Positions 5,663 to 52,282 are shown, counted from the first letter of the stretch. The stretch: DNA of 59,573 nt from a virus (IMGVR_UViG_3300030090_001446:1-59573); one strand, 5' to 3'. Program-made: numbers and translations. The notes: generated by a model from the letters alone, not told the origin.

Positions 5663-5666
5663 GCCC

Positions 5667-6628: not shown

Positions 6629-6631
6629 TAA

Positions 6632-23729: not shown

Positions 23730-23785
23730 TAGAGAATGCAAAACTGGTTCTCTATCTTTCTTGCTAACGAAAGGAGAACATTATG
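23730..23785 (+). ncRNA. ROSE-like RNA thermometer in the hsp20 5' UTR
   Basis: Two hairpins; UUCUUGCU pairs with SD AGGAGAA leaving a bulged G (UUGCU motif). Confidence 0.65.
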
Positions 23786-29379: not shown

Positions 29380-29773
29380 TAAACAAGAAAAATTTGCACA
29401 AGCCTATGTACTGCATCGTAATGCAACAGAGGCTGCAAAGGCAGCAGGGTATTCTGAGAAGTCTGCTAATAATCAGGGGTATAGATTATTACAGATAGAT
29501 GAAGTCGTAACCAGAATTGAGGAACTGGAAAGCGAACTTGTTACTGATATTGATGTTGTTGATGAACTGGAATCTCAGTATACCTTTGCTGCTACTCATG
29601 GTCATACCAATAGTGCAATCAAAGCATTAGAACTTTTATCCAGAGTAAGAGGTGCGAAGTCAGATAGAACTACACACCTCTCTACTGAAACAATTGAGCA
29701 AGAAATTGTTAGCTATATGGAAGCTTTAGGTAAAGATAAAATAGATGATCTAATTAAAAAGTGTAAGTTTTAA
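29366..29773 (+). CDS. terS: Terminase small subunit
   Basis: LNSKQEKFAQAY...NATEAAKAAGYS..SA...GYRLL; AIKALELL. Confidence 0.8.
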   Translation: MSLNSKQEKFAQAYVLHRNATEAAKAAGYSEKSANNQGYRLLQIDEVVTRIEELESELVTDIDVVDELESQYTFAATHGHTNSAIKALELLSRVRGAKSDRTTHLSTETIEQEIVSYMEALGKDKIDDLIKKCKF

Positions 29774-31203
29774 TCAGGATCAATCCCATAACCACCTTCT
29801 GCTTCCGCAGTAAAGTCCGCAGTAAAGTCAGGATAAAAATCTCCAGGTTCATCAATATAAGAACCTCCTCCATGCCATGCGAATGTTCCTTTAGGTACGT
29901 CCTCATAAGATGCAAAACCTGTTTTAAAGTATGCGTCAACTTCTTCTTTTGACATATCAAAAAAATCTTTTGCTTGATCACCATAAAGGTGATCTGGTAG
30001 TGATGTACTATATGATTGTGGTACTGATTGTGGTACTATACTAGTGAGTCCTTGAGCATCCGCAAATCCTCCAGTATGCGTTAGTCCTCCATACATTACA
30101 TCTCCTCTATCCCTCACTAGATTGAAATCCTCTGGTTGGACAACACCAAACATATCTTCGTGAGTTGGTACAAAGGATTCGCTATATGGGTTGAAAGTTC
30201 CCTCTTCTTGTGCCGCAATAGCTTGTGCTAAGTCAGCTTCCCAACCAGAAGGAAGCTGCCCAAAACCTATATTTTCATCTATAACAGTATATGGATTTCC
30301 TGGTTCCGCATAAGCATCATAGAATACATCAGGGGTAATGCCTAATCCTAATCCAGACGTAGCTAATTCTATTGGACCTGCTAATCCAGGTAAATCTACA
30401 CCTTCTTGTAGAACACTTTCAGGTTCTGTTTTTGGTGGGTCCATAAGATCAGTAACAAAACTAATAAGACCAAGTATAGGCATGAAAGCAGGAAAAAATA
30501 AAGATGCTAGTAATCCTAGTCCAGCAAATGTCCAATCTTTTCCAGTAACTTTTTCTCCCATTGCAGCTTTTACTGCTGGTGTTACCAATGGGGCAACGTG
30601 TTGAGCAGCACCTTTACCTATAAGCTGGGGTAAAGACCCTCTAACCACAGCCGATGTCACACCAGACCCTGTGAGAAATGGACCCACTTTCCCTGTGTAA
30701 GGAGTTTCAAAAGTAAATCCTGATGACCAACTAGGCCAACTAGCATCCCATCGACCTTCTTGTTCACCCATAGCTGCTAGTGGAGAACTTTGTTGAGCAT
30801 ATAAATTTCCTTGTTGATCTGCTAATTCAGGATACATACCTGCTCCAAATGCTGCCTCACCTATCTCAGTTTGAGGAATCAATGATTCTATATCATGTTC
30901 CTCAATAGCTACCTCTGGTATTGACATTGATATAGGTTCTGCATATCCACTCTCAACAACCATTGGATTAGAGACAACATCTGCTTCTCCTAGTTCTTGA
31001 GAAATAATTTGACCATTAGTCTGTCTTCCTATTATAGGTATAATTCCACCTCCCATAACACCACGGGGAAGCTGTATACGTCTAGGCATACGCCTTTGTC
31101 TAGGCTGCATAGCATACATAGCTCTGCGCTGCCTTCTATTAGGTTGTCTCTCTGTAGGTATAAACCCAGCTAATCCACTTTGATCTATAGGAAGTGCGTA
31201 CAT
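29770..31203 (-). CDS. Putative internal virion protein (basic N-terminus, acidic body, one TM-like segment)
   Basis: 477 aa; shares GG(I/L)(I/V)P...RQTN with the 723-aa protein. Confidence 0.55.
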   Translation of the reverse strand: MYALPIDQSGLAGFIPTERQPNRRQRRAMYAMQPRQRRMPRRIQLPRGVMGGGIIPIIGRQTNGQIISQELGEADVVSNPMVVESGYAEPISMSIPEVAIEEHDIESLIPQTEIGEAAFGAGMYPELADQQGNLYAQQSSPLAAMGEQEGRWDASWPSWSSGFTFETPYTGKVGPFLTGSGVTSAVVRGSLPQLIGKGAAQHVAPLVTPAVKAAMGEKVTGKDWTFAGLGLLASLFFPAFMPILGLISFVTDLMDPPKTEPESVLQEGVDLPGLAGPIELATSGLGLGITPDVFYDAYAEPGNPYTVIDENIGFGQLPSGWEADLAQAIAAQEEGTFNPYSESFVPTHEDMFGVVQPEDFNLVRDRGDVMYGGLTHTGGFADAQGLTSIVPQSVPQSYSTSLPDHLYGDQAKDFFDMSKEEVDAYFKTGFASYEDVPKGTFAWHGGGSYIDEPGDFYPDFTADFTAEAEGGYGIDPD

Positions 31204-31583
31204 TATTTATAACTCCATATCCAAGGTCTTGGGTGTGTATCATTAGACATATCGTCTAAATGTATAAACCTACGGTCATGTGCGCCTCTTTGAGCAACAC
31301 CTATACCTGTCATCCCATGTTTAATACCTAATTTTATAAGATCATATGCTACTTCACCAATAGCTGCTATATCTACAGCCCTACCAAATATATGAGGTGA
31401 ATCTTTAACACCTCCTATGGCACTGTTATGTGCAGGATGTCGATAAGCTGAATTAATAATCATTGGCCTGTCTAATTCTGTTCTAATATTAATTAGTTTT
31501 TCCATAAATGAATCATTCATATGGCATTCATCAGTGCCTTTGCATTTCATTTCATCTACAGAAAAATATGGATTGTCAATCAT
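31203..31583 (-). CDS. Peptidase M15A endolysin-like protein
   Basis: SAYR...HN...SPHIFGRAVDI...FIHLD. Confidence 0.9.
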   Translation of the reverse strand: MIDNPYFSVDEMKCKGTDECHMNDSFMEKLINIRTELDRPMIINSAYRHPAHNSAIGGVKDSPHIFGRAVDIAAIGEVAYDLIKLGIKHGMTGIGVAQRGAHDRRFIHLDDMSNDTHPRPWIWSYK

Positions 31584-31927
31584 TATTTGTCCTCTACTGG
31601 TGGGTGTTTTCCATTATGCATGTGATAAATTTTACTATTAAAATCTTCAAGCTGTTCTATTTTAGTATGCATTCTTTCTAAAGAACGATGTAGTTTTTCT
31701 CTATTATCAGGTGATAAGATTGTAGATAAAACCCCAATCTTATTTTCAGTTACTTGTGTACTAATATTATTCTTTTCTAATGAATCAAATAATTCATTAA
31801 TATTTTTTTGTATATTCTTTACATCGTCTTCTAATTCTATACATTTTTGACGAGTAACAATAAAGCTTGTCAGTACACTAATAAGCATCCCACCTAATGT
31901 TATTAAAAGTCTTGCGTCCAGTTCCAT
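31583..31927 (-). CDS. Single-TM coiled-coil protein, possibly lysis-related
   Basis: N-terminal TM helix, heptads, adjacent to the endolysin. Confidence 0.55.
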   Translation of the reverse strand: MELDARLLITLGGMLISVLTSFIVTRQKCIELEDDVKNIQKNINELFDSLEKNNISTQVTENKIGVLSTILSPDNREKLHRSLERMHTKIEQLEDFNSKIYHMHNGKHPPVEDK

Positions 31928-35772: not shown

Positions 35773-35784
35773 ATATTTTACCTA

Positions 35785-37956
35785 CTACTTTTGGTTTTTT
35801 AATTTTGCTGCTTGTTCTTTTATTGAAGTAATACCTTGTTTTAAAGGAACAGGAGCTACTGGCAACTCTTTCTTAGTCTCTTCTTGTTGTCCACCCTTTC
35901 CTACATCTTGGTTTAGCATATTTCTTAAATAGTTTATAGTACTTATATCTATACCTGCTCGTCGCGCTGCCTCTTCAGCTAACCTAAACTCACCACTAGC
36001 CAGTAACGCTTTAAACTCGAAATCACTTAAAAGTTCAGCCTGTGTTTTACCTATCTTCGCTTCTAGATCGGCAATTTCTACATCTAACCTAATAAGTTTT
36101 AAATTAAAATCTCTATTATCTTTTCTATTTTTTCTAGCTCTGTCAAGCCTTGCTATTGTTAATTTATTAAATTCTGCATCATTAAGTATTGATAACTCTT
36201 GCTCTTTTAATTCTGCATTAGTTTTTTGAGTTAATTTTGCTAAATCAAGTTTCTCATCCTCTCTTTCTCCTGTACGCTCTGCCTGAGAAAACGTTTGTTC
36301 TTGTTTTAAAAGGTCTATAGCTTCGTCTGCTTCAGATAATTGTCTTTCAATTGATTCTTTATCTCTTCCAATACCTCTTTTAAAACTTTCAATAGCTGCC
36401 GCATCTCTTTTTTGATCAAGTGCTAACTGACGAGTTTTTAAATCTTTTTCTGATTGCACTAAACTTTCTGCCGTGCGTTTTAGATTTGCACCAAAAGGAG
36501 CAAATTCCCAACCTTCTTTAGGTGTTTGATTCATATTCATCATAGCTATCCACAATCTACTCATTGGAGTAACTTGATCAATATCTGCTTGTTCTCTATC
36601 AAACATAGCACTTTGTTTTTTACCAAGCTGTGCATATTTATCTTCTAATAATTTTCTTTGAATAGCAGCTTCTTTTCTAGCCTCTTCTTTAGCACCTATG
36701 GCTCGTCGAAACCTAGCTTGAGGACTTTCATCAGGGTTTAAAACTCTTTGTAAATGTTGTATATTTAGACTAGGCAAAACATCATGGTGCTTATGAAATT
36801 CTTCTGTGCTTATTACTTGGTCATTTGTTTGTCTTCGTACTAAAGGAACAAGTCCACCATCACGACGAGAAACAAGACCACCTCTTTTTCGTACAGCAGG
36901 TCTTGCTGCTGCTGCTCTCTGACCACCTAACTGACCAAATAAACTACCCACACCTGCTCCTATTGATCCTACAGTAGAAGCTAAATTAGCAAATGGTGAA
37001 GGACCGAATTGAGTAGGTGATTGCCTAACTTCTTGTCTCATAGCAGGGAAACCATATGCTGCTGCTTGCATACGATCAAGAACACTTTCAGGAAAAGCCT
37101 GTTCTTCAAGAAATTCTTTATATGCTTCATCAAGAGCAGTTTGTGTTTGCTGTTGTTGCAATGCTCCTACTCGTTCTATACCTGATAATTCTTTAGCTCG
37201 TTGTCCAAATTCACCAGTAGCTAATCCTGTAAGTCCTTGAGCAGTGGCAGCTTCTCTACCCTTCTGCATTTCAAAAGCTTTTAATCCTCGATCATATGCA
37301 GCCTGTGATCCTTTACGTTGTATGTCACTTAGAAGCTGTCCTTGTCCTCGTAAAGCTTCTGCTTCTAATAAAGCGCCCCTGCTACCCCCAAACGATCCTG
37401 ATTGAATAGCAGCAGCTTGTACTTTAGGTAAAACTTCTTGTTCAAACTTTTGTTGCGCTTCTCTTTTTTCAATATCAACAACAGCTTGTTGAAAAGGAGA
37501 CATAAATTTTTCTGCAACATCTCCTGTAAATTCTTCTGGTTGTCCGCGAATTAAAGCTTCAGCTTCAGCAAAACGATCTGCTGTAATACCTGGACCTGTT
37601 TGAGTTACAGCACGTTCACCTGTAGTAGGATCAATAGATATATCAAATCCTGCAAGACCCGCTAATCCTCTCTGAGCTTCTAACTGTTCAGGAGTAAATT
37701 CAGCAATTGTCGGTCCTGTAAAAGCTTTATAACCACCTGGATCAATAGGTTCACCTGTTACAGGATCAAGAACAAGTTCTCCAGTTTCTTCATCACGAAA
37801 ACCCTCAGTCCGAAGCGTAGCCAGTGCAGCTTCTCGCTCCAGATAGTCTTTCATGAACGGACCAATTTCCTCCGCTAGACGTTCTGTAGCAATCGTTACA
37901 CCACCTGGACGAGCCTGTGGTTGAAAAAATCCTGTTCCTAAAGTTGATGATGCCAT
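35785..37956 (-). CDS. Internal virion / DNA-transfer protein
   Basis: IAEFTPEQ, FMSPFQQAV, SFGGSR, Gln/Ala-rich coiled coil. Confidence 0.65.
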   Translation of the reverse strand: MASSTLGTGFFQPQARPGGVTIATERLAEEIGPFMKDYLEREAALATLRTEGFRDEETGELVLDPVTGEPIDPGGYKAFTGPTIAEFTPEQLEAQRGLAGLAGFDISIDPTTGERAVTQTGPGITADRFAEAEALIRGQPEEFTGDVAEKFMSPFQQAVVDIEKREAQQKFEQEVLPKVQAAAIQSGSFGGSRGALLEAEALRGQGQLLSDIQRKGSQAAYDRGLKAFEMQKGREAATAQGLTGLATGEFGQRAKELSGIERVGALQQQQTQTALDEAYKEFLEEQAFPESVLDRMQAAAYGFPAMRQEVRQSPTQFGPSPFANLASTVGSIGAGVGSLFGQLGGQRAAAARPAVRKRGGLVSRRDGGLVPLVRRQTNDQVISTEEFHKHHDVLPSLNIQHLQRVLNPDESPQARFRRAIGAKEEARKEAAIQRKLLEDKYAQLGKKQSAMFDREQADIDQVTPMSRLWIAMMNMNQTPKEGWEFAPFGANLKRTAESLVQSEKDLKTRQLALDQKRDAAAIESFKRGIGRDKESIERQLSEADEAIDLLKQEQTFSQAERTGEREDEKLDLAKLTQKTNAELKEQELSILNDAEFNKLTIARLDRARKNRKDNRDFNLKLIRLDVEIADLEAKIGKTQAELLSDFEFKALLASGEFRLAEEAARRAGIDISTINYLRNMLNQDVGKGGQQEETKKELPVAPVPLKQGITSIKEQAAKLKNQK

Positions 37957-37968
37957 CGTATATATCCT

Positions 37969-40365
37969 TTATGCTAATCCACTTAAACTTATTTTTAATT
38001 CTTCAGAACCATTAATTTCATTAGGTTGATCATCTGTTCCATAAGCTGCTGCTCTAATATCTTTTACAACTTGATCTAAAATTTTACCACCTTCTTTAGC
38101 ACTACCATTTCCTAAAGCAGCTACAGTATAAGCATCAAATACATATTCATCAGGACTTACTGCTAATGTAGCTATTTGTTGTCCATCTGATACAATAGGC
38201 ATTTGAACATTATCTTCCATTCCATGTCCTTCTCCACCAATCAAACCTGAAAAATGTTTTTTCATAATGGTTTCTTGTTTTGGAGAACCTCCTCTTTTTA
38301 AATTAACAGAACCACCAGTAGCTGCTGGTGTTAATTTAAGATCAGTAAATAATGGTTCAAGCAAATCAGATTTTAGCTCTTCATTTTCTTCTAATAATTC
38401 GTCAATATCTTCTTCAGTATCAGCACCAAGAAGTTTTAAAACAAAATTTCTATTAGCTGCACTAGGACCAAATTTAGATAATACTGTAGCTAATCCTGAA
38501 GAATCTCCAGATAAACTCCTGAATGCTTGTGATACAGGAATGCTACTACCAAATCCTATTCTAATATCAGAGGATGAAGAAAGTAATGGAGCAATTTTTT
38601 CTAATGCTGAAGGCATTGGTCCTAAATCGTTACCAAACGGATCGCGACCTCTATTCATTGCTCTCCATTCATTCTTCCAGTTATGACCAAATGGATTAAG
38701 AAAAGCTCCTGCACGCGCTGCATATGCGCCTGAAGTTTTATCATCTAAATATTGTTCAACATCAAAAGTATTTTCGTCAGAATATTCATCTTCATGGCGT
38801 GATTTTGTTAAAATACCTTTTCTAACCGCTCTTGGGTCTAAATTTTGTGCGCCTCCTATGCTATCTAGCCATTTCATATATTCTTTAAATACACGCGGAC
38901 TAGATCGAACTCCACCAATAGCAGGAGTCAGATATGCATCACCTTCTGTTGCAGATTGCGTAGGTCCAACAGCAGCAGTTGGGAACAGTTTATGAAATTG
39001 AGCATTTTGATAAGCAAAAGTTGGATCACCTAACGATCCTTTTTCAGCAGGAGTTAAACCTATTTTATCATATTGAGGATGTTGAGATATATGTACAGGA
39101 CCACTTCTAGCTAGAGAGACTAATCCTCCTGATTGAGTAGCACGTACTGGTTTTTCGCGAGTTCGGTATACTACACTACCTACTAAATCTTGTTTCGTTA
39201 TTCTTATTTTCTTTCCAGACTTATCAGTAACTGTAATAAAACCTTTTGTTCTTAAGTCTTTTTGTTGCTTCTCTGTTAATGGAGGACCAGTATATTTTGG
39301 ACTTCGGGATACACCTCTTTGACCACCAACTTCATCAGGTAATTTTGCAATATTTTTACTTTTAGGTATTTTTTGTGGTGCTGTATCTGGTTGTTCAGGC
39401 TGAGAGTGTTTCTCCATAGTTGTTAATAAAGGTACTACACCTGTACCTAGTTTTCCTTTCAATTCATCTCTTATTTCTTTTTTCGATCCTCCTGAAACTG
39501 TTTTACCCAAACCTGCTCTTCCTGCTACTTGTTGGTAAAAAGGCTTTGCTCTTTCTTCTTTCTGCCTATCTCTCATTTTTCTAAGTATTTCTCTTTCTTC
39601 AGGGTCTTCCTCATCTAACCACAATGCTCCTGCAATAGGCTCATCAGGATGTCTACGCCGATGTTCTTCTCCATATCTAAGACCTTCCAAACCTGCATAT
39701 AACCAATGATCTGGGTGTTGAGAACCCCCTAAAACAGTAGTACCAAATAGTTCTTCCTCTAAAATAGGTAAACCACCTTGTAAACCTGTTCGTATAAGCC
39801 CTTGTCCTATCGCACTATTAGCTATATCACTTAATCCTTCTAGACCAGTTGCATCTACAAGAGAACCAATCGCTGCTGCTCCAAAATCATAACCTATATT
39901 TTTAATAGTCCCTACAGCGGCATCTTTTGCAAAATCTAAAAATCCACCCCAAGATTTATTTATAACAGGTACTTGTTGATTTCTAGTAACTCTATTATGC
40001 GCTTGTTTTGCCATTGCAAGTTGTTGTAAACCAGTTTTAAGCATATCATTCTGTATAGCTACTTCATTTTTTATAGCCTCCTCAAATATATTAGGCTTTG
40101 TTGCAAGTGCTGCTTTTAGAAATTCCTCTTTAAGATGCTCTGGATTCTTTCTTGCAGGTACACCTGGAGGACGCTGTGGTACACCTGAAGGACGCTGTGG
40201 CGGCATTGGTCTACTAGAAGGAGTACGTGGTACTACTCTTTGTCTAGTAGGTCGAGCAGTCATTTCTTGAACCATTCGTTTAGAAGCATCAGGACGTTGA
40301 AGCATATCTCTTACATCCATAAAGCCTTCAAAGTTTCTATCTGTTGGTCGCATAGCTATCTCCAA
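37969..40365 (-). CDS. Putative internal virion protein
   Basis: 798 aa; C-terminal G.G.G..D...SPDEYVFDAYTVAALGNGS domain; GG motifs. Confidence 0.6.
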   Translation of the reverse strand: MEIAMRPTDRNFEGFMDVRDMLQRPDASKRMVQEMTARPTRQRVVPRTPSSRPMPPQRPSGVPQRPPGVPARKNPEHLKEEFLKAALATKPNIFEEAIKNEVAIQNDMLKTGLQQLAMAKQAHNRVTRNQQVPVINKSWGGFLDFAKDAAVGTIKNIGYDFGAAAIGSLVDATGLEGLSDIANSAIGQGLIRTGLQGGLPILEEELFGTTVLGGSQHPDHWLYAGLEGLRYGEEHRRRHPDEPIAGALWLDEEDPEEREILRKMRDRQKEERAKPFYQQVAGRAGLGKTVSGGSKKEIRDELKGKLGTGVVPLLTTMEKHSQPEQPDTAPQKIPKSKNIAKLPDEVGGQRGVSRSPKYTGPPLTEKQQKDLRTKGFITVTDKSGKKIRITKQDLVGSVVYRTREKPVRATQSGGLVSLARSGPVHISQHPQYDKIGLTPAEKGSLGDPTFAYQNAQFHKLFPTAAVGPTQSATEGDAYLTPAIGGVRSSPRVFKEYMKWLDSIGGAQNLDPRAVRKGILTKSRHEDEYSDENTFDVEQYLDDKTSGAYAARAGAFLNPFGHNWKNEWRAMNRGRDPFGNDLGPMPSALEKIAPLLSSSSDIRIGFGSSIPVSQAFRSLSGDSSGLATVLSKFGPSAANRNFVLKLLGADTEEDIDELLEENEELKSDLLEPLFTDLKLTPAATGGSVNLKRGGSPKQETIMKKHFSGLIGGEGHGMEDNVQMPIVSDGQQIATLAVSPDEYVFDAYTVAALGNGSAKEGGKILDQVVKDIRAAAYGTDDQPNEINGSEELKISLSGLA

Positions 40366-40534: not shown

Positions 40535-40812
40535 TTAAAATCTTTCCATGTTGTAGATGCAGCAGTACTTACATAACCCTTAAATTTACCACTGCTTGCA
40601 GAGTATGCAATATCTCCCCCTTTAGGACGCCCAATATTAGTTACTGTAACAACTGTATAAATATTTGTAGTAGGTGCTGCTTCTATTTCTTGATCTCGTA
40701 AATCAAGCTGATTAATTAAAGCTGCTCCCCATTTTTCTAAAGTTTGATAAACTTTTCTAGTTTCTTCTTGTGTAATATTTATAAGAAAAGGAAGATCAGG
40801 ATAACGAGCCAT
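40531..40812 (-). CDS. Small tail-associated protein
   Basis: Follows the nozzle gene; GDIAYS...FKGY...W. Confidence 0.55.
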   Translation of the reverse strand: MARYPDLPFLINITQEETRKVYQTLEKWGAALINQLDLRDQEIEAAPTTNIYTVVTVTNIGRPKGGDIAYSASSGKFKGYVSTAASTTWKDFN

Positions 40813-42653
40813 TACCTTCCTCCATCAGGTTGAAAGGCTACACGAACTGCACCCCATCTCCATTTAGCTTCAGTTGAATTAGTAGAAACTTTAATACTGG
40901 CTTGCCTTCCTCTTACTCTAAAATCTATTTTCTGTGTAGACTTAGTAATTGTAAATGGTCCTTTTGTAACTGATGCCGTACTTTCAGGATAATCTTTAGT
41001 AGTAATAGAAAATTTAATATTACCATCTGTTAAATCAAAATCAGGAATCATTTTATTTAAAAACATTAATTGATTACCATCATCAATATCAAAAGTAGCA
41101 GATTCAATAAATGAAGTTAATGCACTTCCTGATCCTGTTTGTAAATTAATTCCAACAGGTTCATTATCATAAAGGTTATTTCCACCTACAGATGCTCCTG
41201 TTGTAATTGTATTACCAAATACATATTGATCTGCAAAGGTTGTAAATAACGTAGTTCCTATAGTCCAATAATTTCCTTCTGGTGAAAAAATAACATACTT
41301 ATCACAATCACTATTAGTAGTATTATTAGAAGGATATAACCAGATGATTTCATTAAATTCTGAATTTATTCCTGCATAAACTTTATCAACTTGACTTAAA
41401 TTTAATTCATCAAATACATGCTTTCTAACGGTACAAGGAAGAACTCTAACTTGTCCATCATTGGTATAAAAATTATCATGCCCCATCCAAATAGATGCTC
41501 CTTTATAATCTACAGCAGCATGAGGAGCAAGTAATCCACAGTTTGATCCTAACTGTTGGAATTTAAATACAAAAGGAGGACCAACAAAAGACATATTCCA
41601 TAATGCATTATCAGTCCAAATATTAACTCCATTACGAGAACGTACTCCTCCAACAATTCTTGTACCGTCTGTTAAAAGATTATCTCCAGAATTAGAACTA
41701 ACTGAAGGAGTCCAATTATCTTTTCTATTTGTATCAGACCAACGAACTAATAGTGGATTATAATTTCCTGATAAATCATTTGTGCCTAAAGCAATAATAT
41801 GTCTATCATTAGGTGATACTAAAACTGAATCTACCCGTGCAGGAGAGTTAGTTACTGTAGTTAAACGTACAGGAGAAGTTGATACATCAGTATCATAAAA
41901 GAATATAGGACCATTCCTTCTATTAGCTACAACATCTTCTCCATAATTATCTAAACTCCATTGCGTAATCTGTCTAACTAATCCTGATGCTGATGCTGAT
42001 GTAGGCTCATTCCAAGCTCTTGTTTGAGATGCACATACTGTTGCTTGGAATTTAGCTGCTCCATATCCAAGACCAGGACTAGCTACTTCATTTCCTGTTG
42101 TAATTAAATAATTAAGTGTAGCATTTCCTGCTTGTGTGCTAGTAGCATCTGCTGCATCAGTAACACTAATAACATATACATTAGCATCTACAACTGAAGC
42201 AATTTCATACGTATTATTAGATAAATTAATATTACCACCTAGATTAGTACTTGCTGATGTAAAGTTTACAAAGTCACCTGCTTTTGTATTACTTCCGTTA
42301 TCTGAAACACAAACTCTAGTTGTTCCTGCTGAAGTACCAAAACAATTTGCTAATGTTACTGTAGATGCTAATGGTGTTACATCAAATAAAGTATCACCAT
42401 GAAACTCAAATAATTTTTTATCAGTTCCAAACATAGCTCGTTTGGTTTGATCATTATCTACCCAAGTCAATAAATCTCTAGCAATACCATCATAAGTATC
42501 ATCTATCTTAGTTTTATATCCTCTAAGACATTCAGGTTTTCCATCCCGAAAACGAACCCTATCTGCATTAAACCATTTTCCACTTTCAGCATATTTAGTA
42601 GATTCCTTAAATATACCTGGAGGAAAATCAAGTTTAACTAATTTAGTTGTCAT
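40812..42653 (-). CDS. Tail nozzle / stabilization protein (P22 gp10 / T7 gp12-like)
   Basis: Beta-rich 613 aa; VRWSD, INSEFNEIIWLYPS, RGRQ, QPDGGR. Confidence 0.75.
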   Translation of the reverse strand: MTTKLVKLDFPPGIFKESTKYAESGKWFNADRVRFRDGKPECLRGYKTKIDDTYDGIARDLLTWVDNDQTKRAMFGTDKKLFEFHGDTLFDVTPLASTVTLANCFGTSAGTTRVCVSDNGSNTKAGDFVNFTSASTNLGGNINLSNNTYEIASVVDANVYVISVTDAADATSTQAGNATLNYLITTGNEVASPGLGYGAAKFQATVCASQTRAWNEPTSASASGLVRQITQWSLDNYGEDVVANRRNGPIFFYDTDVSTSPVRLTTVTNSPARVDSVLVSPNDRHIIALGTNDLSGNYNPLLVRWSDTNRKDNWTPSVSSNSGDNLLTDGTRIVGGVRSRNGVNIWTDNALWNMSFVGPPFVFKFQQLGSNCGLLAPHAAVDYKGASIWMGHDNFYTNDGQVRVLPCTVRKHVFDELNLSQVDKVYAGINSEFNEIIWLYPSNNTTNSDCDKYVIFSPEGNYWTIGTTLFTTFADQYVFGNTITTGASVGGNNLYDNEPVGINLQTGSGSALTSFIESATFDIDDGNQLMFLNKMIPDFDLTDGNIKFSITTKDYPESTASVTKGPFTITKSTQKIDFRVRGRQASIKVSTNSTEAKWRWGAVRVAFQPDGGR

Positions 42654-42656
42654 TTG

Positions 42657-43580
42657 CTATCTCTTAAAGTCATGTAACATTACAGCATCAATAGTAGTGG
42701 CACTTCTAGCACTATATACAAGCATATCAACTGCATTAGTTGTAGTTGTTAAAACAGGAGCAGAACCACTTACAAATTTAAATACAGTATTATAACCAAG
42801 AGTTCTATTACCAGTACCATCTTGAATAACATAAATAAGACCTGTTTGTCCTGCTGTTGCATTAGATGGTGCAGCTAAAGTTCTATTACCTCCAAGTGTA
42901 ACTAAAAAATTATTACCTACTAAAAAATCAACAGCAATAGATGCAGCGTCTGTTAATGTAGTTATAGGATTAACAGCCCTAGCAGATGTATCAATAACAA
43001 ACTGACCATCTCGTATAGTCTTTGTACCTAAAAGTGTTGTATTAACAGTTACAGATGTTCTTAAATATCGTAAATCAGCTAAAGATGTATCAGGTACATT
43101 AGTAGCACATACACCTATATCCGCACTAGCTGCTGTTCCTAAATTAAACGACTTAGTATTAACAGGTTTAACTGAAGTAGCATCACAATAAATCCATCCT
43201 ATACCACTAAAAGGAACATCATATCCATCACCAGCAGCAGTTTTAATTTTAATAATATCACTAGCAGTAGTATTAGCAGATACTGCATTATTAATTAAAT
43301 AATGTTTAGTATTACCAGGAATAACAAGTGAGATAGTATTATGCGCTCCTCCGACAGTTCCTTTAATATGTAAAATAGCAGATCGAGATTGATCATCTGA
43401 ACCATTATTTGAGGTTAAAGTAACAGAAGTAGTTGATCCTACACTGATAGTAGCTATACCTGCAATAGCTTCATCAGTTAAACTAATAACACCATCGTTT
43501 AATATTTGCCCCCAACTATTAGGATTTTCTCCATCTCCTTGTTTAGTAAGGCGTATATTAGTTGTAAATGTACTTGCCAT
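42657..43580 (-). CDS. Tail fiber / adaptor protein
   Basis: MASTFT...GENPNSWG N-terminus; C-terminal domain shared with the 714-aa fiber. Confidence 0.7.
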   Translation of the reverse strand: MASTFTTNIRLTKQGDGENPNSWGQILNDGVISLTDEAIAGIATISVGSTTSVTLTSNNGSDDQSRSAILHIKGTVGGAHNTISLVIPGNTKHYLINNAVSANTTASDIIKIKTAAGDGYDVPFSGIGWIYCDATSVKPVNTKSFNLGTAASADIGVCATNVPDTSLADLRYLRTSVTVNTTLLGTKTIRDGQFVIDTSARAVNPITTLTDAASIAVDFLVGNNFLVTLGGNRTLAAPSNATAGQTGLIYVIQDGTGNRTLGYNTVFKFVSGSAPVLTTTTNAVDMLVYSARSATTIDAVMLHDFKR

Positions 43581-43591
43581 TCTTAAATTCC

Positions 43592-43972
43592 TTATAAAGA
43601 GTTCTGTTTTGGTGTAGCAGGGATTCCCTTAACAATAATGTATCCTACAAGCATATCATTAATAGAAGATTTTACTTTTAAAACAGTATTTGTTATTTTT
43701 CTATGATCCTTATAACTACTAATAATTTCTGATACTTTAAATTTCATAGGAGGAAAAATTTTTATACAATCTTGATTAATTTTTTTCTCTACAATTTTAC
43801 CAGCAAAAGATTCTTGACTTTTAGAATCTGCCAAAACCAAATCCATTATATCTTTTTCTTGTTTACAAACAAAGAATGCTGCTACTTCATCTCCTATAGA
43901 CCATGTTTCTTCAGCATTTGCATAAATAGGTAATAAAATAAAACTTATTAAAAAAAATACTTTATATAACAT
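43592..43972 (-). CDS. Secreted hypothetical protein
   Basis: Signal peptide ending ANA; two Cys. Confidence 0.6.
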   Translation of the reverse strand: MLYKVFFLISFILLPIYANAEETWSIGDEVAAFFVCKQEKDIMDLVLADSKSQESFAGKIVEKKINQDCIKIFPPMKFKVSEIISSYKDHRKITNTVLKVKSSINDMLVGYIIVKGIPATPKQNSL

Positions 43973-44511
43973 TATTCAAGTTCTCTTGGATTACGAGGCC
44001 AATCATTAAATTCTGCTATTTTTCCGTCTTCTGTAGAAATTGTCATAGCTTCCAAACCAGCAACGTCTCCTTTACTATCTATAGCAGTTTCTAAAGCTTT
44101 AGCTTTGACTCTAAGATCATCTCTCCATTTAGCAAAGTCTGATGGTTGGGCAGTACCATTATCTTGCTCCCTAATTATAATCCAGTCAGTTTGTTCTAAA
44201 TAATTTTTAAGAACATTATTAACATGAATTTTCATTGTATTTTTAATATCAGAAATATTTCTAGCAATTTTTGTTCTTGTAATAACAACTTTATTTTCTT
44301 GAATATCAGGAGTAGATTCAACAGTATAATAAAACATATTATCAATTAAAGAACCTGAATATTCATAAGGTAAAATTCCTATTTCTTTACGTTGATTATC
44401 TGACCAAGCCGAACTAAAAATTGCTTTAGAATATTGAACATCATTTATTACAATTGATTTTGGATGTTTAATAGTCTGTACAATTTTATTATCTATAATT
44501 CTTGCCCACAT
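43972..44511 (-). CDS. Tail fiber assembly / chaperone-like protein
   Basis: LEQTDWIIIR...WRDDLR; follows the receptor-binding protein. Confidence 0.65.
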   Translation of the reverse strand: MWARIIDNKIVQTIKHPKSIVINDVQYSKAIFSSAWSDNQRKEIGILPYEYSGSLIDNMFYYTVESTPDIQENKVVITRTKIARNISDIKNTMKIHVNNVLKNYLEQTDWIIIREQDNGTAQPSDFAKWRDDLRVKAKALETAIDSKGDVAGLEAMTISTEDGKIAEFNDWPRNPRELE

Positions 44512-44520
44512 ACTTTACTC

Positions 44521-46998: not shown

Positions 46999-47000
46999 AT

Positions 47001-49145
47001 TTAACTTCTTCCGTATTCATTGGTTAAAATTGCATGTATGTTTTCACCAGTATTATCACTAGAAACTGATACAACTATATAATCTAATCTTGCTACTGCT
47101 CCATTACTAGTAGCTACAGTAGGTACACTAGCTCCAATAAATTTCCAACAGGTATTATAAGCAACAGTGCCACTACCACCTGATTGTATAATAAAGATAC
47201 TTCCTGTCTGTCCTTTAGTAGCATTTGTTGGTCTGGCTAATGTATGTGCTGCTGTTACAGTTGTAAGAAAATTCTGAGCATTAGAAAAGTTTAAAGACAC
47301 AGAAGTAATCCCATTAATAGCTGTTGCTGATATAGCTGCTGCTCCTGACTTAGCTAAAAATAATTGACCACCAAGACTTACATTACCTGTAATTTGCGCT
47401 GCTCCTGCAACAGTAGCGGTTCCTCCTACATGTAAATTACCTGATACAGAAGCATCATCATCAAATGTTGCAGCACCCGTAGCTAAGAATGTACCTCCTA
47501 TAGAAGTATTACCTGCTACATCTAATGTTCCTCCTACAGTTGTATTTCCACTTACACGTACAGTTCCCAAGAATCCTGCTGCACCACTAACAGTAGCAGT
47601 ACTTAGAAGATTAACAGCACCTCCTATAGAAACCGCACCTCCTATTGAAGCTGCACCAACTACTGTTGCTGTTCCACCAATAACAATATTACCTGATACA
47701 GATACATCGTCATCAAAGGTAGCAGCACCTGTAGACATAAAGGTTCCACCTATTGAGGTATTACCTGCAACATCTAATGTACCACCAACTGTAGTATTAC
47801 CACTTACTCTAACTGTTCCTAAAAACCCTGCTGCACCACTTACAGTCGCTGTACTTAATAAGTTTACTGCACCACCTATTGATACTGCACCACCTATAGA
47901 AGCTGCTCCTGCTATGGTTGTAGTGCCTCCTATATTTACATTACCAGAAACTGATACATCATCGTCAAAGGTAGCTGCTCCCGTAGACATAAATGTACCA
48001 CCTACAGAAGTATTTCCAGCTACATCTAATGTTCCTCCAACTGTAGTATTTCCGCTAACTCTGACTGTCCCTAGAAAACCTGTTGCACCTGATACTGTAG
48101 CTGTTCCTCCGACAAATAAATTACCACCTACTGTAGCATTATTAACAGAAATATTTCCTGTAATGTCAGCAGTTATACCTGTTAAATTAGAACCATCTCC
48201 AAAGAAAGCACTAGCACAGACTTTAGCATTAGCTGCTTGTACATTTGCTCCTGCTATTGTAACAGTACCACCTATATTAAGATTACCACTTACGGATACA
48301 TCGTCTTTAAAATGCCCTGCTCCCGCTACAGTAACTGTTGATCCAAGAACAGTAGCTCCTTCTAATGAAGTAGCACCGCTAACTCTGACAGACCCTAAAA
48401 ATCCTGCTGCACCACTAACAGTTGCTGTGCTTAATAAATTAACTGCTCCACCTATTGATACAGCCCCTCCAATAGACGCTGCTCCTGCAACAGTTGCTGT
48501 GCCACCAATATTAACATTTCCTGATACAGAAACATCATCATCAAAAGTTGCTGCCCCTGTTGTAATAAGTGTACCACCAACTGATGTATTTCCTGCTACA
48601 TCTAAAGTGCCGCCAATACTTGTATTTCCACTAACTCTTGCTGTACCTAGAAAACCTGCTGCCCCACTTACAGTGGCAGTACTTGACATTTTAACAGCAC
48701 CTTCAAGTGAAGTAGCTCCACTTACTCTAACAGTCCCAAGAAATCCTGAATTACCTGAGACTGTTGCAGTACTTAAAAAATTAACTGCTCCACCTACTGA
48801 AAGAGTTCCTCCTATCGTTGCATTATTAGCAACAATCAGAGAACTAACAGATGTATCTCCACTAGCTACAATACTAGTTAAATGTCTACCACTTCCAAAA
48901 TAAGAACTAGCACATACATCTCCATCAACACGTAAAGTTCCAGCTATAGAAACACTAGAAGATACAGCAAAAGAACCTTTTACTCTAACCGCATCTGTTG
49001 CTACTTGCAATGCAGTATTAGTTCCATCTCCTCCTTCAACTTGGGTTAAACCTGAAGAGACTACACCATTACCACTTACAGCAAGTTTTAGTAATCCTTT
49101 GTAAGTATCTGCTATTCTTTTGCCTGTTAAATCAAAATCACTCAT
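47001..49145 (-). CDS. Tail fiber with hexapeptide-periodic repeats
   Basis: 84-aa (14 x 6) super-repeats, FFGDGSNLT knob-type motif. Confidence 0.75.
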   Translation of the reverse strand: MSDFDLTGKRIADTYKGLLKLAVSGNGVVSSGLTQVEGGDGTNTALQVATDAVRVKGSFAVSSSVSIAGTLRVDGDVCASSYFGSGRHLTSIVASGDTSVSSLIVANNATIGGTLSVGGAVNFLSTATVSGNSGFLGTVRVSGATSLEGAVKMSSTATVSGAAGFLGTARVSGNTSIGGTLDVAGNTSVGGTLITTGAATFDDDVSVSGNVNIGGTATVAGAASIGGAVSIGGAVNLLSTATVSGAAGFLGSVRVSGATSLEGATVLGSTVTVAGAGHFKDDVSVSGNLNIGGTVTIAGANVQAANAKVCASAFFGDGSNLTGITADITGNISVNNATVGGNLFVGGTATVSGATGFLGTVRVSGNTTVGGTLDVAGNTSVGGTFMSTGAATFDDDVSVSGNVNIGGTTTIAGAASIGGAVSIGGAVNLLSTATVSGAAGFLGTVRVSGNTTVGGTLDVAGNTSIGGTFMSTGAATFDDDVSVSGNIVIGGTATVVGAASIGGAVSIGGAVNLLSTATVSGAAGFLGTVRVSGNTTVGGTLDVAGNTSIGGTFLATGAATFDDDASVSGNLHVGGTATVAGAAQITGNVSLGGQLFLAKSGAAAISATAINGITSVSLNFSNAQNFLTTVTAAHTLARPTNATKGQTGSIFIIQSGGSGTVAYNTCWKFIGASVPTVATSNGAVARLDYIVVSVSSDNTGENIHAILTNEYGRS

Positions 49146-49444
49146 GCGCTATTCCAAACTGGTGAAATTACTTGATCACTCATATTATTAGGAGTACCCT
49201 CCCAAAGTAAGTTAGCTGTATTCCACACTAGGTTACGACCTCCTGAATCAGGTCTAGGATTATCTATTTTAGTATCATCCCTGACATTAGGAACTTTATT
49301 TTGAGGATGATTTTTTAAATCAAAAGCACCGTCATAATCTTCTGGACAAACTAATAAACCAAAACTATTTAGCTTCATTAATCTATGTGGATATCTAAAA
49401 TTACAAATATCACAGACTGCTAAAGCTTTACGATCTGTTGCCAT
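49142..49444 (-). CDS. Conserved small Cys-containing virion-module protein
   Basis: CDICNFRY...VCPEDYD...HPQ...PRPD. Confidence 0.7.
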   Translation of the reverse strand: MATDRKALAVCDICNFRYPHRLMKLNSFGLLVCPEDYDGAFDLKNHPQNKVPNVRDDTKIDNPRPDSGGRNLVWNTANLLWEGTPNNMSDQVISPVWNSA

Positions 49445-50118
49445 TAAACTGTCCTAATTTTAGGTTTAAAGAAAATACTTGCTCGTTCTTTATCTTCTTC
49501 CATTGCTCGTTGAAGAAGTTCTTCATAATTTCCTTTTAACATTGCAATTTTATCATTAGGTACATTAGGTCTTTTCATTGCCATATAATAAGACAAACCA
49601 CAAGTAAGCGGAGGTAAAAATCTTTTAGGCATATCAGCGTTCTGTCCTGCTGATTTATTTACATCTTCTAATTGACTAATACGTTCTATCTTTAATATAT
49701 CTGTACTATTATCAGGTAAAGGCCAAATACTTAAAGTAGGATTATCTCTGTCTCGTTTAATTGTATATTGAGTTGCTCTGCCTGTTTGTTTTTTATTTGG
49801 AATAATTAAATATTCTTCAAAAGAAATACGAGTTAATTGGATATCAGTATCATCTCGATTAACTACAACTTCTAAAGCATCTACTGTAGAACTACTCAAA
49901 GAATAAGATGTAACACTAGCAGCAACTGTAACTGCTGTTACTTCTGTTGACCATAAAAGAACACCTCTATTCTGCCAATCCGTTAGCATTAGATTAATAG
50001 AACGTCGGGCAGAAGCAGGTTCATGACCAAGAGTATTTTCTCCTCCGATCATTTCACTTGCTTCTTGTATAACCTCGTCTATGTCAAGGTTAAAATTAAA
50101 TGTACCGCTAGTTGCCAT
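49444..50118 (-). CDS. Head-tail adaptor / tail tubular protein
   Basis: MATSGTFNFNL, ARRSINL..DWQNRG, WPLPD. Confidence 0.7.
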   Translation of the reverse strand: MATSGTFNFNLDIDEVIQEASEMIGGENTLGHEPASARRSINLMLTDWQNRGVLLWSTEVTAVTVAASVTSYSLSSSTVDALEVVVNRDDTDIQLTRISFEEYLIIPNKKQTGRATQYTIKRDRDNPTLSIWPLPDNSTDILKIERISQLEDVNKSAGQNADMPKRFLPPLTCGLSYYMAMKRPNVPNDKIAMLKGNYEELLQRAMEEDKERASIFFKPKIRTV

Positions 50119-50136
50119 TTTAATTCCTATTAAAAA

Positions 50137-50682
50137 TTATATTTGTCCACCCTTTTTATAACCATACATTACACCTTGATTAACAAGTTCTTTAGGAATT
50201 TTCATTTCAATATTAAAATCGCCGCCACCACGCTTAGAAACTTTTTTTAGCTTTGGACCAGGATTTCTAGTATATTCAGTGGACATATATTGCTCACCTT
50301 CTGTCAACTTCTTTTTCTTTTTCTTTGCACCTATATCTAATTCTTTACCACCTTGTACTCTTTTTTTAGATAGTTTTAATCCCATAATGTTTCTCCTCGC
50401 TTGATTTGATGTTATTGGTTTCATATCTTTATGTAATTTAATATCATAGGCGCGTAACTTTTCATGAGTTTTGCGTGTTGGCCAATTTATACCGCTATCA
50501 ATAGCGCGTTTTATAGCATCTTTTTCATTTAAAATTTTTCCATTCCAAACGCTTGGTATAAGCGTTGGTACACCATTGATATCTACTTGTCGCGTGTAAA
50601 CAGTGGAAAGACTGCCGTCTTTATTTTTTACAGCTTTTCCTTCCGAAATATTTTTAAAATGATGTTGTAAAATAGGGTCCAT
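50137..50682 (-). CDS. Hypothetical protein; probable in-frame fusion with internal start at 50385
   Basis: Internal GAGGAG-7 nt-ATG; ends YKKGGQI. Confidence 0.6.
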   Translation of the reverse strand: MDPILQHHFKNISEGKAVKNKDGSLSTVYTRQVDINGVPTLIPSVWNGKILNEKDAIKRAIDSGINWPTRKTHEKLRAYDIKLHKDMKPITSNQARRNIMGLKLSKKRVQGGKELDIGAKKKKKKLTEGEQYMSTEYTRNPGPKLKKVSKRGGGDFNIEMKIPKELVNQGVMYGYKKGGQI

Positions 50683-50690
50683 TATTTTTT

Positions 50691-50906
50691 CTAATCATAA
50701 AACGATGCAACGTATAAAGTTCCACCTTTGTATTTATTTATTATCTTGCCGCCTTTATTTGCTTTTATAGAACCAAGAAGAAAAGACTTAGGACGTTTTC
50801 TTTTGTGTGTTTTAGGTTTATTAAATCCTAGTTTTCTTATAGGTCTTTCTTTTGCTAAAGTGGGAATAGGTCGAGTTATTTTTTTGTCTTTAGAATAAGC
50901 AACCAT
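50691..50906 (-). CDS. Small basic protein (GG motif, VASFYD end)
   Basis: KANKGGKII, KYKGG. Confidence 0.65.
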   Translation of the reverse strand: MVAYSKDKKITRPIPTLAKERPIRKLGFNKPKTHKRKRPKSFLLGSIKANKGGKIINKYKGGTLYVASFYD

Positions 50907-50916
50907 TTATTAATTC

Positions 50917-51309
50917 CTAATCATATAAAGATGAAACAAGATCGTTACCTGACATAACTTGTCCACCTTTTTTACGGTTTACAACTTTTCTATCACCTTT
51001 ACGTTTAACAACTTTACCACTAGTACTTTTTTTCTTTTTTTGTCCTGTTGTTAGCCAAGGGTCTTCAGGAATATTTTGTAATTCTCTTATCTCAGCATCT
51101 GTCCAATTTTTATTGGATTTCATGCTTCGATAGATATTATGTATTGTAACGGGATTTAGTTGATTACCGTACTTTTTTAGACCAACTATACGGTCAAACC
51201 TTTTTAATTCTTCTTTACTTACTTCAGGACTCTCGTGCGTTAGATACTTATCTTTACGCTTTACAACTTTTTTACCATTTTGACGTATAGCTGTTGCTGG
51301 TACTGGCAT
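50917..51309 (-). CDS. Basic protein (GG motif, VSSLYD end)
   Basis: RKKGGQVMSGNDLVSSLYD; GGAG RBS. Confidence 0.7.
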   Translation of the reverse strand: MPVPATAIRQNGKKVVKRKDKYLTHESPEVSKEELKRFDRIVGLKKYGNQLNPVTIHNIYRSMKSNKNWTDAEIRELQNIPEDPWLTTGQKKKKSTSGKVVKRKGDRKVVNRKKGGQVMSGNDLVSSLYD

Positions 51310-51320
51310 TGTAATTCTCC

Positions 51321-52280
51321 TTAATCATATAAAGATGAAACAAAATCGTTACCTGACATAACTTGTCCACCACCCATACGTTTAACAACTTTACCACCCT
51401 GATTATATTTTTTAATAGGACCACCCTTTTTCAAAGCTGCTCCTGTGTAACTAGGATCAATTTCTTTTCGTAGAACTTGTTTAGCTGCGTCGAATGTACG
51501 AGCAGCGCTACTTTGTCCTGGAGTTAGTGGTTTTTGTGGTTTTGAAATATACGGCTCAACACGTTCTTTTGATAAAGGTTTACGTCCGCTTTGTGTTCTC
51601 GCTCCTGCTTTCAAAAGTGCATCAGTATTTTTCTGTGCTTGTGTTTTTGTAGGAGCTTCCTTAGCTTCTTGTGCAATTTTCTTTTGTTGTCTTGATGTTA
51701 AATTTTTAATTTTATTGCCTAATGACTTAGCAAAAGCAGGGCCATGTTTAGTTGCAGTCTGTATTAAAAAAGGTATAGCAACAGGAGCAATAAGAGCAGC
51801 AGCAGCAGTACTAATACCTATCTGACCTGTAAGTTTTTGCTCTGGCGTCATAGAGGTATCTGCTTTTGTTTTAGCTTCTTGTCTAGCTCTACGTGCTGCT
51901 CGACTTTTTTCCCTTGTTCCTAAAATATCTTCAGGCTTTTTACGTTTAGATTTAGTAATTTCAGGCGCACTAAGATCAGCACCTGGAGATTCTTTTACAG
52001 GAGCGGGTATTTTACGTTTAGATTTAGATTTAGGTTTAGATGAATCTAATTTATTTTGACCCATAGTACGTCTCACCTCTGCTGCTATTTCTTTTACAGA
52101 AGATTTTTTTTCTTTCTTTTGTTGATTTAAATATTTTCTTAAAGACTGTGCGCCAAAACTTTTAAATCCTGCTTTTTTCATATCTTCTTTAGTTACAGCA
52201 GCTTTTCGTTTTCCATCTTTTCCTATAAAATAGCTTTTGCCTTGTTTACGAGCTTCAGCTATACTTTTTGGTTCAGCCAT
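51321..52280 (-). CDS. Basic protein (GG motifs, VSSLYD end)
   Basis: LKKGGPIKKYNQGGKVVKRMGGGQVMSGNDFVSSLYD. Confidence 0.7.
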   Translation of the reverse strand: MAEPKSIAEARKQGKSYFIGKDGKRKAAVTKEDMKKAGFKSFGAQSLRKYLNQQKKEKKSSVKEIAAEVRRTMGQNKLDSSKPKSKSKRKIPAPVKESPGADLSAPEITKSKRKKPEDILGTREKSRAARRARQEAKTKADTSMTPEQKLTGQIGISTAAAALIAPVAIPFLIQTATKHGPAFAKSLGNKIKNLTSRQQKKIAQEAKEAPTKTQAQKNTDALLKAGARTQSGRKPLSKERVEPYISKPQKPLTPGQSSAARTFDAAKQVLRKEIDPSYTGAALKKGGPIKKYNQGGKVVKRMGGGQVMSGNDFVSSLYD

Positions 52281-52282
52281 GA

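Follow-up and report, generated by a model that had tools for sequence, protein, structure and literature searches.

A short Gly-Gly tag on small basic proteins and presumptive ejection proteins in and near the HTVC023P-type podophages

Why should virus proteins that range in size from 71 to 798 amino acids (aa) carry the same short basic peptide? The question is raised by the structural arm of IMGVR_UViG_3300030090_001446:1-59573 (here called the window; 59,573 bases, to which all coordinates refer), where at least seven proteins had been noted to share a basic motif built around two glycines (GG), originally predicted to be a capsid-loading signal or a protease site on internal or ejected cargo. 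The peptides quoted in that prediction are all present in translations of minus-strand open reading frames (ORFs) (Table 1). We find that the GG motif is a real, protein-level, lineage-wide short linear tag of HTVC023P-type podophages, and we weigh several readings of what it may do, among which a docking handle on probably carried cargo proteins is a tentative proposal that we put a little below an even chance. The core of the tag consists of an aromatic or basic residue, any residue, K, R, or A, the two glycines, any residue, and V, I, or L, followed by basic residues. The tag is usually C-terminal and is usually doubled at a spacing of 8 to 9 residues, after which a short terminal anchor follows; in the window, this anchor reads ...SGND[LF]VSSLYD-end, except where the protein stops with the tag (...YKKGGQI-end).

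Enrichment and conservation of the tag

When the 31 structural-arm proteins were compared with per-protein shuffles of themselves, the expression [KR]GG.[IVL] matched 8 times against 1.36 expected, a count that was reached in 0/500 shuffles. In the 49 early-arm proteins, it matched 3 times against 0.75 expected (20/500 shuffles). Two of the 8 structural-arm matches lie outside the set originally named, one in a 93-aa protein and one in the mobile loop of a GroES-like protein, where KTKGGIILPD fits the expression; since this 142-aa protein matches PF00166, its KGGIILP is the loop of the Cpn10 family and was not counted as a tag. In an unbiased count over the window, in which basic-G-G-x-hydrophobic matched 6 proteins (z 3.2), this pattern was among the top 14 of 1306 reduced-alphabet ones. 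Since equally high scores go to unrelated patterns, support for the tag from the window alone is no more than moderate.

The tagged proteins had also been described as otherwise unrelated, which does not hold for all of them. The tails of the 130-aa and 319-aa proteins are near-identical (49/54 nucleotides; E of 1e-8 in an all-against-all blastp comparison), a likeness that reflects a recent duplication or conversion. The 71-aa tail, which matches the 319-aa tail at an E of 0.007 (blastp), is a more distant paralogue written in other codons. Separately, the 477-aa and 723-aa proteins share a 19-residue module (residues 52-70 and 367-385, respectively; blastp E of 0.004) whose DNA is identical at 39/57 nucleotides, with 4 synonymous and 8 non-synonymous codon differences.

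Relatives were collected from IMG/VR with the capsid protein, which gave at least 600 matching stretches from which 80 loci were kept, and with the nozzle protein, which gave 20 loci, for 100 contigs in total. Motifs were counted in the plus-strand ORFs of these 100 loci after removal of homologues of the GroES-like, nozzle, and 93-aa proteins, which left 2011 unique ORFs that are related to one another and not independent. In these ORFs, the strict motif occurred 110 times against 41.3 +/- 6.6 expected (200 shuffles; maximum, 62), and 61 of the instances fell within the last 20% of the ORF, against 7.6 +/- 2.7 expected (shuffle maximum, 17). Among the 110 instances, the median number of residues after GG was 22.5; counts by position gave K at -1 in 56, K, R, or Y at -2, basic residues at +3 to +5, and a second GG 8 to 9 residues on, while the V, I, or L at +2 after GG (58, 37, and 15 instances) was set by the search pattern itself. 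Some proteins consist of hardly anything but tandem tags, such as one of 113 aa with five copies of SKY[RK]AKGG.V and one of 80 aa with three. The terminal anchors that follow the tag in the relatives are ...SGND[LF]VSSLYD, ...RG[YF]GKAMK.., ...HNRLY, and ...ERNPYNY.P.AI, unless the tag itself is the end.

The DNA word AARGGNGGN has nine matches on the minus strand, eight in frame, none out of frame, and one outside genes; the constraint therefore lies on the peptide and not on the DNA, and a DNA-level element, such as a ribosome-binding-like word, can be ruled out. We then built a profile of 46 positions from 25 Y-D tails, in which GG, V, and the terminal Y-D are nearly invariant despite a mean identity of 29%, and searched it among 1.84 billion proteins. 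At E <= 0.001, the hits numbered 174, each standing for a cluster at 50% identity. Of the 150 tail matches listed, 142 end no more than 3 residues from the C terminus, in proteins whose lengths span 29 to 462 aa. A positive charge was found in 97% of 123 N-terminal parts of tail-bearing proteins (median, +0.155 per residue), and the N-terminal parts among the 150 listed fell into 36 blastp groups, one with 73 members. Domains found fused to the tail were few, namely, LysM (3/69 and 5/150), DUF5872 (5/69), an L5 gp82-like domain (2/69), and a weakly matched Dockerin-like domain (6/150).

Table 1 Tagged proteins, tag-bearing segments, and related features of the window
Feature	Coordinates	Strand	Observation
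Cassette: five adjoining genes for small, very basic proteins (181, 71, 130, 319, and 67 aa)	50137..52647	-	Between two adaptor-like genes
181-aa protein	50137-50682	-	C-terminal end is YKKGGQI
181-aa protein, C-terminal module	50140..50235	-	KRGGGDFNIEMKIPKELVNQGVMYGYKKGGQI-end; sole conserved part in relatives of 67-83 aa
71-aa protein	50691-50906	-	ANKGGKI and YKGG
71-aa protein, tail	50694..50765	-	KANKGGKIINKYKGGTLYVASFYD-end; two GG units and Y-D anchor; translation and blastp
130-aa protein	50917-51309	-	RKKGGQV
130-aa protein, tail	50920..50988	-	KVVNRKKGGQVMSGNDLVSSLYD-end; translation and blastp
319-aa protein	51321-52280	-	KKGGPI, NQGGKV, MGGGQV
319-aa protein, tail	51324..51440	-	AALKKGGPIKKYNQGGKVVKRMGGGQVMSGNDFVSSLYD-end; three GG units and terminal Y-D anchor; tail DNA 97% identical in contig L085, gene body unmatched
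Adaptor-like protein 1	52647..53327	-	SU10_adaptor, E 2.1e-19; upstream border of cassette
Adaptor-like protein 2	49444..50118	-	SU10_adaptor, E 4e-9; downstream border of cassette
477-aa protein	29770-31203	-	PRGVMGGGIIPIIGRQTN at residues 46-63
477-aa protein, tag near N terminus	30994..31068	-	PRGVMGGGIIPIIGRQTNGQIISQE; 19 residues in common with the 723-aa tag
723-aa protein	35785-37956	-	RKRGGLVSRRDGGLVPLVRRQTN at residues 356-378
723-aa protein, double tag	36802..36897	-	AVRKRGGLVSRRDGGLVPLVRRQTNDQVISTE; end of PHROG 4287 "DNA ejection protein" domain; kept in orthologues
798-aa protein	37969-40365	-	TQSGGLV at residues 410-416; ATGGSVNLKRGG at residues 682-693
798-aa protein, internal tag	39106..39144	-	RATQSGGLVSLAR; orthologues have AKQGGLVSLN
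798-aa protein, tags before C-terminal module	38218..38328	-	ATGGSVNLKRGG ... LIGGEG; directly before the conserved C-terminal module
798-aa protein, conserved C-terminal module	37972..38268	-	No family; a GG tag always precedes the module in relatives
Nozzle protein, candidate docking partner	40812..42653	-	PHROG 3287, 1.4e-81
GRPKGGDI in conserved 93-aa protein adjoining nozzle gene	40609..40632	-	Fits the strict pattern; kinship with the tag uncertain
GroES-like co-chaperonin, 142 aa	56749..57177	-	PF00166, E 1.7e-9; 38 bits (cut-off, 21.1)

Small basic proteins and large presumptive ejection proteins that carry the tag

C-terminal tags are found, within the window, in the cassette of small genes between the two adaptor-like genes. 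The five cassette proteins have net charges of +0.12 to +0.40 per residue (+0.12 to +0.24 in the four tagged ones) and no PHROG or Pfam family. Four of the five have the GG tag at the C terminus; the 67-aa protein, which is the most basic of the cassette (+27), is untagged. Invariant alignment columns run from K51 to D71 in the 71-aa protein and from K150 to Q180 in the 181-aa protein, so that the invariant parts are the last 21 to 31 residues. In relatives whose adaptor-like proteins are 42 to 99% identical, the cassette is recognizable by its tails only. In contig L085, for example, the flanks are 97 to 99% identical, yet DNA matching the gene bodies (319, 130, and 181 aa) is absent, and what remains is tail-coding pieces of 70 to 100 nucleotides; there and in a second contig, L086, DNA similarity within the cassette is confined to the tail-coding stretches. 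The tag is present in all 21 cassettes that have an adaptor gene on either side; 15 have it in the strict form, and in the other 6 it is relaxed, GG being preceded by Y, A, M, T, or S. The class of terminal anchor tracks the clade of the adaptor: in the 64 loci with adaptor-like protein 1, Y-D tails were found in 17/33 of one clade and 2/31 of the other, and ...NRLY ends in 0/33 and 10/31, respectively, by loose patterns in a comparison that phylogeny confounds. No match was obtained in 50,697 phage records with the 130-aa protein (tblastn) or the region of the 130-aa and 319-aa genes (blastn), and a protein combining LysM with the tail matched the same records through LysM only.

Three cassette proteins of relatives (L045:9297-9821, L048:2571-3122, and L058:2272-3165) have a LysM domain together with a GG tail that ends in ..RG[YF]GAVRK. 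A LysM domain and a GG tail on one protein would suit an ejected protein that works in the periplasm.

The remaining tags that had been named lie in three large proteins. In the 723-aa protein, the PHROG 4287 domain covers residues 146-356, and a Gly/Ala-rich hydrophobic stretch precedes the tag, reading LASTVGSIGAGVGSLFGQLGGQRAAAARPAVRKRGGLV. Orthologues have K.HGG[VI]VSRR[DE]GGLVPL[VI]RR, and distant ones have [AF]K.GG.I..LP. In one distant relative (L104), the orthologue of the N-terminal domain is a separate protein of 322 aa that stops ~10 residues past the aligned region and ends in ...GKDFVAGLFD, which resembles the ends of the small proteins with Y-D tails. No similarity could be detected between the second half of the 723-aa protein and the ORF next after this split orthologue, which leaves a gene fusion at the 723-aa tag without support.

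The 477-aa protein is acidic (net charge, -38). Its orthologue in contig L112 keeps GLMGGGIIPVIGR; the RQTN.Q[IV]IS extension common to the 477-aa and 723-aa proteins is specific to the window, both L112 orthologues keeping only GG[LI][IV]P[LV][IV].R (one genome compared). The C-terminal module of the 798-aa protein, FSG.[IV]GG.GHGMEDNV.MPI...TLAVSP.EYV.D.YT..ALGNG..., was matched at E <= 0.001 by 557 unnamed proteins of 245 to 840 aa, none of which has a Pfam family or a name. AlphaFold2 modeled it with low confidence (mean pLDDT of 47.4 with 11 alignment rows and 53.7 with 48 rows).

Docking, cutting, and other readings of the tag

The original proposal that the motif marks internal or ejected cargo fits what can be read from the proteins, namely, a modular and mostly C-terminal tag on hypervariable basic proteins and presumptive ejection proteins that is also fused to LysM and other domains. 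We propose, with somewhat less than even confidence, that the tag is a docking handle on cargo proteins that are probably carried in the particle. The terminal anchor and the hydrophobic residues that follow GG would bind a conserved surface, either of the portal-adaptor-nozzle channel or of an internal core; the two glycines would permit a tight turn; and the flanking Lys and Arg residues, together with the basic bodies, would lie on the DNA end. During infection, the tagged proteins would exit with the DNA or ahead of it. Recombination could swap the bodies freely, the handle alone being constrained. We infer the incorporation of the tagged proteins into the virion, their docking site, and their ejection. 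If the proposal is true, a tag readable from sequence would allow the proteins that are carried in virions and delivered into cells to be predicted, would point to fast-evolving cargo that may act on host envelopes or defenses, and would give a means of loading short-tailed phages with foreign proteins.

Placement of the motif on the scaffold or the capsid shell, as originally envisaged, is not supported; in T7 gp7.3, the best structural precedent, a tail of this kind lies in the adaptor-nozzle channel, on the DNA end. There, residues 84-98 are fixed on a pair of neighboring nozzle subunits where adaptor and nozzle meet, K84 and K85 contact the DNA end, and the DNA is surrounded by the basic N-terminal part (PMC11784390). 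The tail of this basic 99-aa protein, ...AGGKKSLSVARSSGGGINI-end, has two GG units amid lysines and hydrophobic residues and is kept in 4/4 T7-family proteins examined, and T7 gp6.7 ends in ...FGGKK. In the phiKMV-like Ar-KM, "gp7.3-like factors" such as gp34 are described as ORFs of 45 to 450 aa with basic termini that adjoin portal genes and are too poorly conserved for homology to be recognized (10.64898/2026.05.18.726046). Like gp7.3, gp6.7, and Ar-KM gp34, the cassette proteins are small, basic, of low complexity, poorly conserved, and near portal or tail genes; by the terms used for Ar-KM, they are 71 to 319 aa long, carry +0.12 to +0.24 per residue, have no family, lie between adaptor-like genes, and have unconserved bodies. 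There are also differences. Homology to gp7.3 and gp6.7 was not detected, uncorrected blastp giving only low-complexity matches at E >= 0.001; four or five genes form the cassette between two adaptor-like genes, whereas T7 has one gene before the portal; the same tag is also on large ejection proteins here, which is not reported for T7; and the published descriptions of gp7.3-like proteins, in their accessible parts, name no GG motif.

The C termini of tape measure proteins offer a second comparison. FATGGF, YATGGY, and RDGGLF occur in lambda gpH (three instances) and RAEGGMM in T5 pb2 (one), with a Gly/Ala-rich hydrophobic stretch ahead of the pattern, as is also the case in the 723-aa protein. 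Residues 818-849 of gpH sit on the hub protein gpI (PMC12617516) and reach into its terminal RDGGLF (GG at 845-846), and the last 35 residues of pb2C dock on the hub protein pb3 (PMC10038345). A 759-aa coding sequence of phage DSL-LC04 in the corresponding block of ejection genes (WJZ48115.1) is annotated as a tape measure protein, which links it to the 798-aa protein by gene-block position only. Among the differences, the tape measures of lambda and T5 are cut, which is hypothetical for the tagged proteins, and podophages have no tail tube. No tape measure family of Pfam was found in the 798-, 723-, 477-, or 319-aa protein at E <= 10; Tape_meas_lam_C covers residues 627-701 of gpH, upstream of its GG motifs, and matches no protein of the window. 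Since the likenesses to T7, lambda, and T5 are all below sequence significance, we describe the tag as working like these systems and not as a member of their families. A rather unlikely reading is that the GG tail is a portable ride-along address across tailed phages: any protein ending in the tail would be fixed in the tail channel or core and be delivered into the host ahead of the DNA, podophages would for that reason keep a swap-in cassette of cargo (peptidoglycan binders and possibly anti-defense proteins), and the same code would lie behind the anchoring and cutting of the lambda and T5 tape measure C termini. The peptide likeness to gpH and pb2 bears on the question of gpH cleavage, for which the lambda paper states both site and catalyst to be unknown. 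Neither full-text searches nor the lineage papers in their accessible parts (PMC9599517 and PMC10149686) gave a published description of a GG motif on ejection proteins; a lone mention of "Gly-Gly" in a P22 paper (PMC8402733) was not assessed.

Several observations weigh against a docking handle. Within the window alone, the GG pattern is not outstanding in the unbiased count, unrelated patterns scoring equally high, and part of the similarity among tags stems from recent duplication (the 49/54 nucleotides noted above). The tags are internal in the three large proteins, and the 798-aa instances lack basic flanks. No tag was evident in the stretches examined of three relatives whose capsid proteins are homologous (CRP-902, Caulobacter phage GB2A, and Alcaligenes phage QDWS535), and the tag is therefore not required by the capsid type. 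The accessible parts of PMC9599517 and PMC10149686 hold no proteomic, structural, or genetic data for members of the lineage. In phmmer searches, T7 gp6.7, gp7.3, and gp13 had no match at E <= 10 among the ORFs of the window and the related loci. Co-folding of the nozzle protein (613 aa; 14 alignment rows) with adaptor-like protein 2 (224 aa; 30 rows) and the 71-aa protein (3 rows) gave 0.00 twice, which speaks neither for nor against binding.

Two other known systems invite comparison. The capsid-targeting sequence of T4 is a short N-terminal peptide on IPI-III and Alt that is removed by the prohead protease gp21, and the basic core proteins of adenovirus and African swine fever virus have Gly-Gly-X sites that are cut by a virus-coded clan CE cysteine protease. 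The tag resembles the former in being a short peptide common to otherwise unrelated, often basic, hypervariable proteins (which in T4 are carried in the virion and injected) and the latter in placing GG-containing sites on basic proteins of a double-stranded DNA virus. The N-terminal position of the T4 type was not found here, where 61/110 strict instances lie in the last fifth of the ORF and 142/150 listed tail matches end within 3 residues of the C terminus. When the 31 minus-strand proteins were scanned with Pfam and PHROGs and the 49 plus-strand proteins with Pfam, no protease family appeared besides an M15 endolysin, the scans giving in this respect only this endolysin and a SleB-like hydrolase. 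The scans revealed neither a T4-type prohead protease nor a clan CE cysteine protease among these 80 proteins, and the original remark that no prohead protease is recognizable stands at this level. For the two unnamed proteins of the head module (200 and 165 aa), an Atlas look-up gave no protease lead; the 200-aa protein had a weak lead as a cement protein (scores <= 0.85).

The original alternative, a protease site, would have the proteins cut at or just before GG during assembly, by a host protease or by an unrecognized or autocatalytic activity, so that modules are released or activated. Its precedents are the tape measures: R1127 of T5 pb2 (FVPR/AEGGMMYPG), after which a cut has been mapped by mass spectrometry (PMC10038345), lies three residues before the only C-terminal GG of that protein, and the Gly-rich C-terminal part of lambda gpH, where ~14 kDa is cut off, holds FHFATGGFTG, RGYATGGYVG, and RDGGLFSGGGR-end. 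The tags of the 723-aa and 798-aa proteins also lie at module joints, and the distant orthologue of the 723-aa N-terminal domain is a separate protein that stops just past the aligned region. In BLASTP comparisons, the 723-aa segment and the 798-aa module matched the gpH C terminus only at E of 2.9 to 3.9, which is not significant. Most tags lie 2 to 22 residues from the C terminus (the 181-aa protein ends two residues after GG), and cutting would therefore free only a tiny peptide; three to five tandem tags in proteins of 80 to 113 aa are also hard to reconcile with cutting, and the GG tail of T7 gp7.3 is uncut in the virion (PMC11784390). We consider a processing site unlikely, less likely than docking for the tags near the C terminus or present five times in 113 aa and possible for the internal tags of the large proteins. 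Docking is preferred because the tags are near the C terminus and occur in tandem copies, the T7 precedent is uncut, and no protease was found.

The tails could instead neutralize charge, as DNA-condensing segments of histone-like internal proteins in which GG is a flexible spacer without a specific partner. The basic charge of all five cassette proteins and of 97% of the 123 N-terminal parts of tail-bearing proteins would agree with this, as would K84 and K85 beside GG in T7 gp7.3, which contact DNA (PMC11784390), and the basic clefts of the A4 ejection proteins, which hold DNA (PMC12002296). Charge neutralization needs neither a C-terminal position nor a near-invariant GG, V, and terminal Y-D; moreover, the acidic 477-aa protein is tagged and the most basic cassette protein is not. 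We regard this explanation as distinctly unlikely.

Very unlikely is a third explanation, by ancestry and recombination only, in which the tail DNA is kept as a homology patch for the exchange of cassette genes and the peptide has no function. The near-identity of the 130-aa and 319-aa tails and the confinement of cassette DNA similarity in L085 and L086 to the tail-coding stretches are what such a patch would give; against it stand the 25 tails that keep GG, V, and Y-D at 29% mean identity, the different codons of the 71-aa tail, the in-frame occurrence of AARGGNGGN (8/9, never out of frame), and the tail that 174 clusters, with <50% identity to one another, keep at the C terminus.

The mobile loop of GroES binds GroEL. 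That the tags imitate this loop and recruit host GroEL to the cargo is scarcely credible. GGGIIPII and GGLVPLV do resemble KTKGGIILPD of the phage Cpn10-like protein, and GroES is a core gene of the HTVC023P-type lineage (PMC9599517). In the tags of the small proteins, however, GG is followed by basic residues instead of three hydrophobic ones, a loop of this kind is usual in the Cpn10 family, and nothing ties the tags to the use of a chaperonin.

Genome context and additional features

The window is a complete, circularly permuted podophage genome whose portal gene is divided between the two ends. The ends (1-666 and 58908-59573) overlap within this gene by 666 bases that are 92.3% identical (51 mismatches and 0 gaps), which looks like an assembly joined across two strain variants and not like an exact terminal repeat. 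A plus-strand arm (~3.1-29.8 kb) carries nucleotide-metabolism and replication genes. The minus-strand arm carries the terminase, the portal, the GroES-like protein, the scaffold-like and capsid proteins, the two SU10-adaptor-like proteins, fibers, the nozzle protein, three large unnamed proteins, a holin-like protein, the M15 endolysin, and the 477-aa protein. The capsid protein has 49 to 53% identity with its counterparts in phage DSL-LC04, Pelagibacter phages HTVC027P and HTVC023P, Roseobacter phages CRP-901 and CRP-902, and cyanophages MinM2 and Pag-Yong1, and these identities place the window in or near the HTVC023P-type group of PMC9599517. HTVC023P-type phages are described there as among the most abundant pelagiphages, and their structural proteins are nearly all unnamed. 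In phmmer searches against solved structures, the nozzle protein matched three chains, the nozzle chains 8zkk_O and 8zkm_E and chain 9nwi_Y; the capsid protein and adaptor-like protein 1 had no match.

Several features lie apart from the tag. A 307-aa protein (42657-43580) and a Gly-rich repeat fiber of 714 aa (47001-49145), both on the minus strand, have their C-terminal ~100 residues in common (E of 3.9e-21), which suggests two fiber proteins with a common distal domain. In the early arm, a 135-aa protein (5255-5662, plus strand) matches Pfam PF09652, "putative CRISPR-associated protein Cas_VVA1548" (E of 2.1e-17), in a stretch of raised G+C content (0.45), and three adjacent small early proteins (5550-7107, plus strand) share a Cys-rich ..KTCSLFSCATRERKTM.. 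(E of 3e-7 and 2e-5) and make up a small family of paralogues. Besides the GroES-like protein on the minus strand, the phage encodes an Hsp20-type small heat-shock protein (E of 1.1e-14) at 23783-24223 on the plus strand. Finally, the SleB-like cell wall hydrolase (PF07486; E of 3.2e-20) is encoded in the early arm at 12962-13435 (plus strand), in addition to the M15 endolysin at 31203-31583, and a second holin-like gene, GTA_holin_3TM, lies at 28089-28493.

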